Assembly (NCBI GenBank): GCA_035476275.1
Contig: DATILR010000391.1
Span: 63-64,062 of the forward strand
Length of the DNA: 64,000 nt
Reading direction: 5' to 3'
Origin: Candidatus Binatus sp.
GTDB lineage: Bacteria > Desulfobacterota > Binatia > DP-6
Positions within the stretch are counted from its first letter, which is position 1. Each line of letters starts with the position of its first letter. Shown here one piece after another: positions 57,809 through 59,783 of the stretch. The translations under genes and the position numbers were made by a program. Under the pieces are notes generated by a model. It was not told the origin of the DNA. It ran no database searches and saw only the letters and a list, made by a program, of their open reading frames with translations.

Positions 57809-57948
57809 TCGGCGTTCTCGGCCGATATAGCTCTCGATCGGCTCCCTGCATGGCAGTGCGCATAGCACGGCAGAGAAGTGGTTCGCCATTCTGATTGAGA
57901 CCCCGTCGGGGGGCTGTTACGTTTTCAGCATCCCGAGTTGAGGAGCAC

Positions 57949-58962
57949 GTGAGCGGCACGAACGGAGCGACCGAGGGCTATTCTCATCTGATCGGCGAAC
58001 ACCAGCTGATCCAGAAGATCACCCAGCTCGTCCGCAAGGTGGCGGTCACCGACGCCACCATCCTGATCACGGGAGAGAGCGGCACGGGCAAGGAGCTCGT
58101 CGCCCGCGCGATCCACGCGCTCAGTCTGCGGGTGGATCGGCCCTTCATCCCCGTCAACTGCGGCGCCATCCCCGCCGAACTCCTCGAGTCGGAGATGTTC
58201 GGTCACGAGCGTGGCGCCTTCACCGGCGCCATCGGCCAGCGGGCCGGCATGTTCCAGCTCGCGAACGGCGGCACGATCTTCCTCGACGAGGTCGGGGAGA
58301 TGAGCCCCACCCTGCAGGTGAAGCTCCTCCGGGTCCTCCAGGACCGTGAGATCCGTCCCGTCGGCGCCGATCGCGTCCTCAAGGTCGACGTGCGCGTCAT
58401 CGCGGCGTCGAACAAGGATCTTGCCGCCGAGGTCGAGGAGGGCAACTTCCGGGAGGACCTGTTCTACCGCCTCCAGGTCATACCGATCGTCATGCCGCCG
58501 CTTCGCGAGCGCCGCTCGGACATTCCGCTCCTCACCGGCCACTTCCTCGACAAGCACAATCGGAAGCGCTCCGGTCGCCCCGCACGGATCGCCGAGGAAG
58601 CAATGGTGCACCTCTGGGAATACGACTGGCCAGGCAACGTGCGCGAGCTCGAAAATCTTCTCGAGCGTCTCGTCATCCTCTCCGAGGACGGCATGATCGG
58701 CGTCGAGCACCTGCCGCCCAGCATGCGCTCCTTCATCTCGGAAAAGAAGATTCCGCGCCCCACCCTGGGCGAGGAGGGTCTCGATCTCAACACCGCGGTG
58801 GAAGAGTTCGAGAACCGCCTCATCGAGGAGGCCCTCCGTCGCACCAAGGGCAACAAGCAGGCGGCCGCCCGTCTGCTTGGCCTCAAGCGCACGACGCTGG
58901 TCGCGAAGCTGCGGCGCCGCCGAGGCGAGGACGCGGACGACGAACAAGAGGTGTCGGAATGA
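57949..58962 (+). CDS. Sigma-54-dependent transcriptional activator without a receiver or sensor domain: an AAA+ sigma-54 interaction domain plus a C-terminal Fis-type HTH
   Basis: GESGTGKELVARAIH Walker A, GAFTGA sigma-54 contact motif, ESELFGHERGAFTGA, and a C-terminal KGNKQAAARLLGLKRTTLVAKLRR HTH. Only ~14 aa precede the AAA+ core. The GTG start has a GAGGAG SD. Confidence 0.85.
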   Translation: MSGTNGATEGYSHLIGEHQLIQKITQLVRKVAVTDATILITGESGTGKELVARAIHALSLRVDRPFIPVNCGAIPAELLESEMFGHERGAFTGAIGQRAGMFQLANGGTIFLDEVGEMSPTLQVKLLRVLQDREIRPVGADRVLKVDVRVIAASNKDLAAEVEEGNFREDLFYRLQVIPIVMPPLRERRSDIPLLTGHFLDKHNRKRSGRPARIAEEAMVHLWEYDWPGNVRELENLLERLVILSEDGMIGVEHLPPSMRSFISEKKIPRPTLGEEGLDLNTAVEEFENRLIEEALRRTKGNKQAAARLLGLKRTTLVAKLRRRRGEDADDEQEVSE

Positions 58963-59420
58963 CGCTCCCCGCCGAGTCACCCCGCATCCTCGTGGTCGAC
59001 GACGACCCCGGTTCGCGCGACGTTGCCGCCCGCCTGCTCGAGCGCGAGGGGTACCGCACGCAACAGGCCGACTCTGGCGAGGAATGCCTACGCATCGTCG
59101 CCGCGGGGGGCGTCGACCTGATCCTGCTCGACGTCATGATGCCCGGCATGGACGGCTTCGAGGTCTGCACCGCGCTGCGCGATGGCGGATCCCGCATCCC
59201 GGTCATCCTCCTCACCGCCCGTGACGACCTCGACACGCGTCTCGAGGGCATGCACCGCGGCGTCAGCGAATTCCTCACCAAGCCGATCAACCGCACCGAG
59301 CTGTTCGCCCGCGTCCGCGCGCAGCTTCACATCGTTGAACTCGGCCGTCAGCTCGAGATCGTGGAGCGGAACCTTCACGCGTTGCGGCACGACGGCCTCC
59401 CTCCCCGCCGGGAGGACTGA
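58959..59420 (+). CDS. Standalone CheY-like receiver-domain protein, translationally coupled (ATGA) to the sigma-54 activator
   Basis: RILVVDDDPGSRD…DLILLDVMMPGMDGFEVC…VILLTARDD…LTKPI. Confidence 0.88.
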   Translation: MTLPAESPRILVVDDDPGSRDVAARLLEREGYRTQQADSGEECLRIVAAGGVDLILLDVMMPGMDGFEVCTALRDGGSRIPVILLTARDDLDTRLEGMHRGVSEFLTKPINRTELFARVRAQLHIVELGRQLEIVERNLHALRHDGLPPRRED

Positions 59421-59528
59421 CTCCCGCCTAGACGTGAGTGCCCGGCGCCTCTCGGCGACAGGCGCATTGGTAGAAAACATTAAGAGAAATCGTCCGACCC
59501 GCTCTCCGACAAGCCGTCGCCCCCCCCG

Positions 59529-59558
59529 TTGCCATCATCACCTTCAATAAGCTAAATA
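59529..59558 (+). promoter_or_regulatory. Candidate sigma-70 promoter TTGCCA-18-TAAATA for the RHH gene, in an AT-rich islet
   Basis: The AT-rich stretches cattggtagaaaacattaagagaaa and caataagctaaatagctcttt stand out against ~70% GC. Confidence 0.35.
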
Positions 59559-59597
59559 GCTCTTTCACCCGCCCCCGGGGGCGTGGGGGAGGCTTCG

Positions 59598-59783
59598 ATG
59601 GCGAAAGAAGATGACGTCCTCATCCAGCTTGCAACCCGCATCCCGAAAGGCCTCCATCGCGAGATCAAGCTGTTCTGCGTGCACAACGGCATCTCGGTGA
59701 TGGAGTTCGTGGCCGCCGCCCTCGAGGAAAAGCTGCGCAAGAGCAGCGTCCGCGGCGGTGGCCGGCGCGCCGCCGCCCGCTAG
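59598..59783 (+). CDS. Ribbon-helix-helix (CopG/ParG/Arc-like) small DNA-binding protein
   Basis: 61 aa. Beta-strand VLIQLATRIPKGLHREIK followed by helices LFCVHNGISVMEFVAAALEEKL. GGGGGAGG SD 5 nt before the ATG. Confidence 0.6.
   Translation: MAKEDDVLIQLATRIPKGLHREIKLFCVHNGISVMEFVAAALEEKLRKSSVRGGGRRAAAR

Follow-up and report, generated by a model that had tools for sequence, protein, structure and literature searches.

A sigma-54 activator without a regulatory domain is encoded directly before a stand-alone receiver in all Candidatus Binatia loci sampled

Transcription by sigma-54 depends on enhancer-binding proteins as its obligatory switches. In those known, the switching is done by a domain of the protein itself or, in rare cases, by dedicated partners such as PspA, HrpV, NifL, FleN and, recently, DrdR. 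Here we describe two adjacent genes of Candidatus Binatus sp., one for a sigma-54 activator of 337 amino acids (aa) and one for a stand-alone receiver of 153 aa, which lie on contig DATILR010000391.1 in a stretch of 64,000 nucleotides (nt) with a GC content of 68% (the window). An original prediction, made from the letters alone, had described them, together with a small ribbon-helix-helix (RHH) gene that follows, as a split and permuted NtrC. Two precedents make control in trans a credible mechanism for such a pair: the bacterial enhancer-binding proteins (bEBPs) of group 4 are regulated by protein binding in trans (PMC7175178), and in Xanthomonas campestris the receiver-only response regulator DrdR binds FleQ, inhibits its ATPase and lowers its DNA binding (PMC13535131).

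Like PspF and HrpR/HrpS, the protein of the window is an AAA+ sigma-54 activator that has a C-terminal helix-turn-helix (HTH) domain and no N-terminal regulatory domain, and it is expected to be controlled in trans by the product of another gene, as PspF is by PspA and HrpR/HrpS by HrpV. On the other hand, the candidate partner in Binatia is a phosphorylatable receiver and not a protein of the PspA or HrpV type, and its gene lies immediately downstream in the same operon. The pair also differs from PspF itself, in that the AAA+ core is nearer to FleQ, NtrC and ZraR and scores below the cutoff of the PspF equivalog. With NtrC, NtrC1 and DctD (bEBP group 1) the pair shares the output module of AAA+ domain and Fis-type HTH, at up to 57% identity, and, as we propose, the logic of a phosphorylation input that is passed to a sigma-54 activator. 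However, group 1 proteins carry an N-terminal receiver in the same polypeptide, which the 337-aa protein does not have; the Binatia receiver is a separate polypeptide, is encoded after the AAA+/HTH gene and belongs to a subfamily that resembles the first receiver domain of PleD (PleD receiver 1). The DrdR-FleQ system is similar in that an output-less response regulator acts on a sigma-54 activator, which is the mechanism proposed for Binatia, but DrdR has tandem receivers and FleQ has an N-terminal domain of its own, whereas the Binatia activator has no regulatory domain and its pairing is conserved in all Binatia lineages sampled. Finally, the receiver can be compared with PleD receiver 1 and the single-domain regulators of the DivK kind: PleD receiver 1 is its best sequence match and the phospho-acceptor pocket is intact, but the Binatia protein has neither a second receiver nor a GGDEF domain, and the gene context is a sigma-54 activator operon.

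To see how far the arrangement is conserved we compared ten loci, that is, the window and the neighbourhoods of nine relatives (L001-L003 and L084-L089). In all ten Candidatus Binatia loci a stand-alone receiver gene directly follows the activator gene, with an identity of 58-87% for the activator and 43-70% for the receiver; the original prediction had named as a possible refutation an arrangement found in no relative, and the opposite is seen. In the clade of the window the two genes overlap by 4 nt, the TGA of the activator and the ATG of the receiver being read as ATGA (gaATGAcg at 58957-58964), just as had been predicted, and elsewhere they are separated by 6-31 nt. Judging from these overlapping codons and short gaps, the two proteins are made together. 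The surroundings of the pair fall into three unrelated types. Type A (the window and L001-L003) has rdgB and rph on the opposite strand, the pair and then a 60-aa gene; type B (L084, L086 and L088) has a PTPS gene, the pair and then a gene of the MamF_MmsF family; type C (L085, L087 and L089) has NMT1 or amidohydrolase genes on the opposite strand, the pair and then a convergent short-chain dehydrogenase gene.

As a background we used 80 generic activator loci from other bacteria, obtained by a collection scan with the generic patterns WPGN and GESGTGK. None of the 80 has an adjacent downstream stand-alone receiver. Most of these activators include a receiver as part of their own chain. Just three are short, and those too lack an adjacent receiver. 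No orthologues of the short Binatia activator were present among the 80 loci listed by that scan. Two of the loci (L035 and L080) are from Binatia and encode canonical NtrC-type activators of 455-458 aa, which means that the cis architecture coexists with the pair in the phylum. Since the pairing holds in 10/10 Binatia loci in three different neighbourhoods and in 0/80 generic loci, the pair is a genuine, selected and conserved two-gene unit (operon) rather than a juxtaposition by chance. It is an unusual arrangement, clearly a real one, and every Binatia locus sampled has it. An eleventh case of adjacency is documented by the 470-aa protein P0519, in which a frameshift reads through from activator to receiver. 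P0519 was considered as a real fusion, which would have been Rosetta-stone evidence, and was rejected as an assembly artefact.

The activator product matches the Pfam families Sigma54_activat (PF00158, 2.3e-71, 239.3 bits against a cutoff of 20.2) and AAA_lid_14 (2.7e-27, 94.8 bits against 27) and, at its C-terminus, the Fis-type HTH family HTH_8 (1.4e-13, 50.8 bits against 22), so the complete sigma-54 core and HTH that had been predicted are indeed there. It contains the Walker A motif GESGTGKE, the sigma-54 contact loop GAFTGA, the Walker B residues DE and the arginines in FREDLFYRL and NVRELEN. In an alignment with relatives of 56-60% identity, Walker A and B, GAFTGA and the arginine fingers R168/R174/R232 are invariant, with GAFSGA in one lineage. 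The HTH is nearly invariant. The AAA+ domain begins at residue 14 of 337, leaving 13 residues before it (in the longest open reading frame, which starts at 57895, it begins at residue 32). An in-frame TGA at 57892-57894 allows at most 18 extra residues, and the divergent RNase PH gene starts at 57808, 140 nt upstream; too little is thus left at the N-terminus for a receiver or for a GAF or PAS domain. The start codon of the original prediction is not mis-called, and the receiver or sensor domain further upstream in the same frame, which might have overturned the prediction, is precluded by this stop. A hidden N-terminal domain is ruled out by the stop, by the divergent gene and by the uniform length of the homologues.

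These homologues form more than 120 clusters with 84-98% identity, all of them 324-358 aa long, and the named clusters come from metagenome-assembled genomes of Candidatus Binatia or of a 'Deltaproteobacteria bacterium'. When cluster representatives were searched exhaustively, the closest relatives over the full length (59-62% identity) were again short (~350 aa) and came from Binatia or Binataceae. Receiver-containing proteins of the NtrC/AtoC type come next, with no more than 57% identity to the AAA+/HTH part. One cluster member of the relatives, P0510 (430 aa), has a spurious N-terminal extension from a mis-called start and could pass for a fusion.

In NCBIfam all named activator equivalogs score the activator under their curated cutoffs, among them the two models for PspF (TIGR02974, 272 bits against 443.55; PRK11608, 228 against 529). 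Its AAA+ core scores about 300 bits with FleQ, NtrC and ZraR and about 195 bits with PspF. The earlier label "PspF-like" is thus right for the domain architecture and wrong for the AAA+ core. From its sequence we regard the activator as a complete sigma-54 enhancer-binding protein that has intact catalytic motifs and no regulatory domain, with an architecture that matches bEBP group 4 and resembles PspF in this respect only.

The product of the second gene has a single Response_reg domain (PF00072, 5.2e-32, 110.8 bits against a cutoff of 30.2) and no output domain, which bears out the prediction of a stand-alone CheY-like receiver. The acidic pair D14/D15, the phospho-acceptor D58, T86 and K108 are invariant in the 10 orthologues. 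The protein extends about 30 residues beyond alpha-5, and this extension is probably helical (residues 129-145), as indicated by a single-sequence model of low confidence (predicted local distance difference test, pLDDT, 53). By a wide margin, the best match in the PDB is PleD receiver 1 (1.5e-35, 125 bits); the next match has 81 bits, and the remaining ones are generic stand-alone or OmpR-type receivers. Family models give the same ranking, with 116.3 bits for PleD and 74 for NtrC, and against the receivers of 73 NtrC-type activators the scores have a median of 53 and a maximum of 76 bits. The match to the PleD family covers receiver 1 only and stays far below the cutoff of 474 bits; the architecture of two receivers and a GGDEF domain is not found. 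Based on these residues and scores, we describe the protein as a phosphorylation-competent, stand-alone receiver of the PleD receiver 1 type. Because it scores higher with PleD receiver 1 than with NtrC, it does not appear to be a detached NtrC receiver.

How could the two proteins work together? In the mechanism that we propose, a promoter of the sigma-70 type would express the operon, and a histidine kinase encoded elsewhere would set the phosphorylation state of the receiver. The receiver would then bind in trans to the AAA+ module and control the hexamer assembly or the ATPase of the activator, and would in this way stand in for the cis-acting receiver of NtrC-type activators. The sign of the control could be either, namely anti-activation, as with PspA, HrpV and DrdR, or activation, and the sigma-54 promoters under control would lie elsewhere in the genome. 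We take action in trans to be the best reading because activator and receiver genes are so strictly paired; that the phosphorylated receiver controls the ATPase or the assembly of the activator in this way, from a two-gene operon conserved across Candidatus Binatia, seems to us an even bet. In a more specific form, which we put forward tentatively and consider somewhat short of even, the regulatory domain of the activator has in Binatota become a separate, co-translated polypeptide, and the PleD-type receiver docks on the AAA+ ring in a phosphorylation-dependent manner and is the sole switch of an otherwise constitutive activator, so that the pair would be a 'two-piece response regulator'.

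A sigma-70-like element, TTGAGA-N17-TACGTT, does precede the activator in the clade of the window. In the type C loci, TTGACA-N18-TACACT, which matches the consensus at 10/12 positions, is found at the equivalent place before the operon and is the stronger of the two. The divergence of the two proteins is correlated pairwise (r = 0.85), but shared phylogeny confounds this value, which comes from no more than 10 pairs.

Several observations, this confounding among them, weigh against direct control in trans. Conserved adjacency shows a functional link and not direct binding. The receiver resembles those of PleD and DivK, and receivers of this type in other bacteria act on kinases or cyclases, not on AAA+ activators. 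We were not able to find a credible sigma-54 (GG-N10-GC) promoter near the pair when we scanned the window and seven related loci with a weighted TGGCACG-N4-TTGCW score, in agreement with the original prediction, nor an enhancer-like motif shared by the flanks of the ten loci (10-mers with at most 1 mismatch in at least 8 loci). No RpoN box turned up when the window and all loci, which cover a small part of any genome, were translated in six frames. No kinase motifs, and hence no linked histidine kinase, were found in the open reading frames of the window; L001 and L002 do have kinases close to the pair, but these are non-orthologous, with a catalytic core of only 34-36% identity, and nothing in the window matches them.

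The scans also turned up a few sites and elements that we list here for completeness. TGGCAG-N-TAGCA at 57851-57867 was considered as a sigma-54 promoter and rejected, since its GG-N11-GC spacing is wrong and the GG is lost in two relatives. The top consensus match of the window, TGGCATGACCTTTGCG (53045-53060, plus strand), lies on the non-coding strand at the clpP/tig junction and is probably a chance match. In related loci the best sigma-54-like sites are GGGCACGTCGCTTGCT in L003 (234-249, minus strand; about 80 nt upstream of an amidase gene) and GGGCATGGGCCTTGCT in L002 (2227-2242, plus strand; 17 nt upstream of a histidine-kinase gene); neither is conserved from one locus to another, and both are 6-8 kb away from the pair. 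In the intergenic region between rph and the activator, CCGATATAGC (57822-57831) and GCGCATAGCACGGC (57858-57871) are invariant among four loci of the same clade and could be promoter or operator elements of rph. No Rfam match was found in 57700-59900. We also found no papers on Binatota or Binatia together with sigma-54 or RpoN.

The strongest alternative is that the receiver is co-expressed with the activator but is not its partner. It would then act elsewhere, for example as a phosphate sink, as a kinase modulator or as a protease adaptor like DivK or CpdR, and what controls the activator would be its level of expression, a small ligand on the AAA+ domain or an unlinked anti-activator. Such a role would suit a receiver whose closest solved relative is PleD receiver 1, followed by generic stand-alone or OmpR-type receivers, in a pair to which neither a kinase nor a target is linked. 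A ligand would suit an AAA+ core that is closest to FleQ; c-di-GMP binds the AAA+ domain of FleQ. On the other hand, mere co-expression is hard to square with strict pairing in three neighbourhoods and with translational coupling, and an activator that has no regulatory domain needs some control, for which the receiver is the sole conserved neighbour. We therefore regard this alternative as rather unlikely, if still a serious one.

Next, we consider whether the 61-aa gene that follows the receiver gene in the window belongs to the module as a third component, either as a co-regulator of the targets of the activator or as an orphan antitoxin, as the original prediction had suggested. The gene itself is real and conserved. 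Its protein has 265 homologues of about 60 aa, with 74-98% identity among the 120 listed; some were named 'HicB family' by JGI, and the few with a taxon name are all from Binatia. Matches to RHH families are sub-threshold throughout, both in Pfam (HicB, E = 0.064; Omega_Repress, E = 0.072) and in the PDB (omega repressor, E = 0.056; CopG, E = 0.28). The core of an AlphaFold 2 model (pLDDT 79.6) is helix-turn-helix, a G-I-S turn joining the two helices, and the N-terminal segment is modelled as a helix; the RHH strand from this segment would form only in a dimer. The top Foldseek matches of the model are VapB and Arc, at non-significant E values above 1. Compared with the RHH repressors (omega, CopG, Arc and the HicB/VapB domains), the protein is alike in size, in the predicted order of strand, helix, G-x-S turn and helix, and in a palindrome over its own -10-like hexamer; it differs in that all matches are sub-threshold, that there is no toxin partner and that its position is conserved within one Binatia clade. 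The predicted RHH fold thus remains plausible, and the protein is probably an RHH DNA binder.

The AT-rich promoter-like region claimed for this gene also exists. It is preceded by a spacer of 177 nt, with a GC content of 51% over 59460-59565, and by a good Shine-Dalgarno (SD) sequence, GGGGGAGG (59585-59592). A promoter-like element, TTGCCA (59529-59534)-N17-CTAAAT (59552-59557), has the conserved form TTGCnA-N17-TAnnnn; a strict consensus promoter scan found nothing ahead of the gene, and the promoter is a weak call that rests on positional conservation. A palindrome covers the -10-like hexamer (AGCTAAATAGCT, 59550-59561, in the window and GCTACGTAGC in L001), which fits autoregulation, and the gene is probably autoregulated.

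Is it then a part of the module? Each of the five loci in the clade of the window has it directly downstream of the pair and in the same orientation, the protein is very conserved, and a palindrome overlaps the -10-like hexamer. However, it is absent beside the pair of the six type B and C loci, and where it is present, it has a promoter-like region of its own and is set off by the gap of 177 nt. No co-directional toxin gene lies beside it, the next gene being convergent, and its fixed chromosomal position and high identity among the listed homologues are unlike those of mobile toxin-antitoxin genes; neither the adjacent toxin nor the sporadic, mobile distribution of type II antitoxins is found. 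We consider a third component improbable, and the suggestion of a co-regulator or an orphan antitoxin is not borne out. Since the gene adjoins the pair in one of the three context types only and has its own promoter-like region, it is to all appearances a separate transcription unit and a clade-specific neighbour, not a core part of the pair.

Some further observations concern the flanks of the small gene. A conserved box, TGGTAGAAAACATTAAG (59468-59484), of the form (A/T)GGTAGA(A/T)AACAT, lies about 115-130 nt upstream of its start. The box is non-coding in the window and in L001 (~9510-9525) and overlaps the end or the stop codon of the receiver gene in L002 and L003, so it is conserved as DNA or RNA and not as protein. 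The operon promoter of the type C loci has a similar AACATTT stretch immediately before its -35 hexamer. In the type B loci, the receiver gene is followed by a gene for a membrane protein of the MamF_MmsF family (L084 9634-9999, L086 9666-10040, L088 9632-9991), and this gene is preceded by GGCATTGC(N17-18)TA.AGA, a promoter-like element that resembles the one ahead of the type A 61-aa gene. Convergent to the 61-aa gene in type A loci is a Pfam-less protein of 128-155 aa and unknown function (L001 9834-10298, L002 9781-10167, L003 9775-10179; for the window see Table 1), with a conserved C-terminal domain of about 75 aa, GERRLLLAVLEDGIRTLLKH...ICETLGID..RLR.RV. In the window, an acyl-CoA dehydrogenase gene is inserted between the two, which is not found at this position in L001-L003.

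The framing of the original prediction, a literal fission and permutation of an NtrC-type response regulator in which the receiver moved downstream, is not borne out. In its favour one can say that NtrC/AtoC-type proteins come close to the activator, with an identity only slightly below that of the short Binatia relatives (57% at most against 59-62%). The receiver, however, scores far better with PleD receiver 1 than with any of the 73 NtrC-type receivers or with the NtrC model, canonical NtrC-type activators coexist in Binatia (L035 and L080), and no fused intermediate was seen, the sole apparent fusion being a frameshift artefact. We hold this explanation to be very improbable. An artefact that mimics an activator without a regulatory domain, be it a mis-called start, a pseudogene or an assembly error, has a negligible chance. 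The chimera P0519 does tell us that these assemblies are not free of such errors, but an in-frame stop closes the activator frame 18 codons before the start, the divergent neighbour begins at a distance of 140 nt, a length of about 337-344 aa recurs in over 120 independent clusters, and the gene calls are identical in an independent assembly.

The layout of the window around the pair is given in Table 1. On the minus strand lie lon, clpX, clpP, tig, tRNA genes, rdgB and the RNase PH gene, and after the latter the plus strand carries the activator, the receiver and the 61-aa gene; the same products of 337, 153 and 61 aa had been called independently on an identical metagenome contig. The window holds another orphan stand-alone receiver. 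Its gene, which encodes 127 aa, comes shortly downstream of lon-clpX-clpP-tig and is flanked by tRNA-Leu and a 132-aa gene. No kinase lies nearby.

Table 1. Coordinates of the pair and of its surroundings in the window
Feature	Position	Strand	Basis or remark
clpX	51098-52351	-	
tRNA-Leu	54342-54422	-	
Second orphan receiver gene, 127 aa	54527-54910	-	Response_reg, 1.1e-23
132-aa gene	55010-55408		hydrophobic, signal-peptide-like N-terminus
rdgB	56466-57053	-	
RNase PH gene	57050-57808	-	start codon 57806-57808
Divergent intergenic region	57809-57948		between RNase PH and activator genes; four-locus alignment and direct reading
Sigma-54 activator gene, 337 aa	57949-58962	+	Pfam matches, alignment with relatives
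Stand-alone receiver gene, 153 aa	58959-59420	+	Pfam Response_reg; PleD best PDB match
Intergenic region before small gene	59421-59597	+	conserved box, weak sigma-70-like promoter, palindrome, SD; four-locus alignment
Small gene, 61 aa, probable RHH	59598-59783	+	265 homologues of ~60 aa; sub-threshold RHH matches
Acyl-CoA dehydrogenase gene	59869 to ~61680		
Pfam-less protein gene	61691-62158	-	

What would these results mean? If the receiver does not touch the activator, the finding shrinks to a conserved but ordinary co-expressed gene pair. If it does, an enhancer-binding protein without a regulatory domain that has a stand-alone receiver as its likely partner in trans would be new, as a variant of the control known from PspF and HrpRS. 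A strictly conserved operon of this kind would amount to a modular wiring of two-component signalling to sigma-54, and it would offer a natural system in which to study how a receiver controls the assembly of an AAA+ ring without a covalent linker. Should the two-piece form be true, this would be the first two-component phospho-signal that reaches an enhancer-binding protein solely via a stand-alone receiver. For the Binatota, an uncultured phylum with a physiology known only from metagenomes, the pair would be a first regulatory handle.

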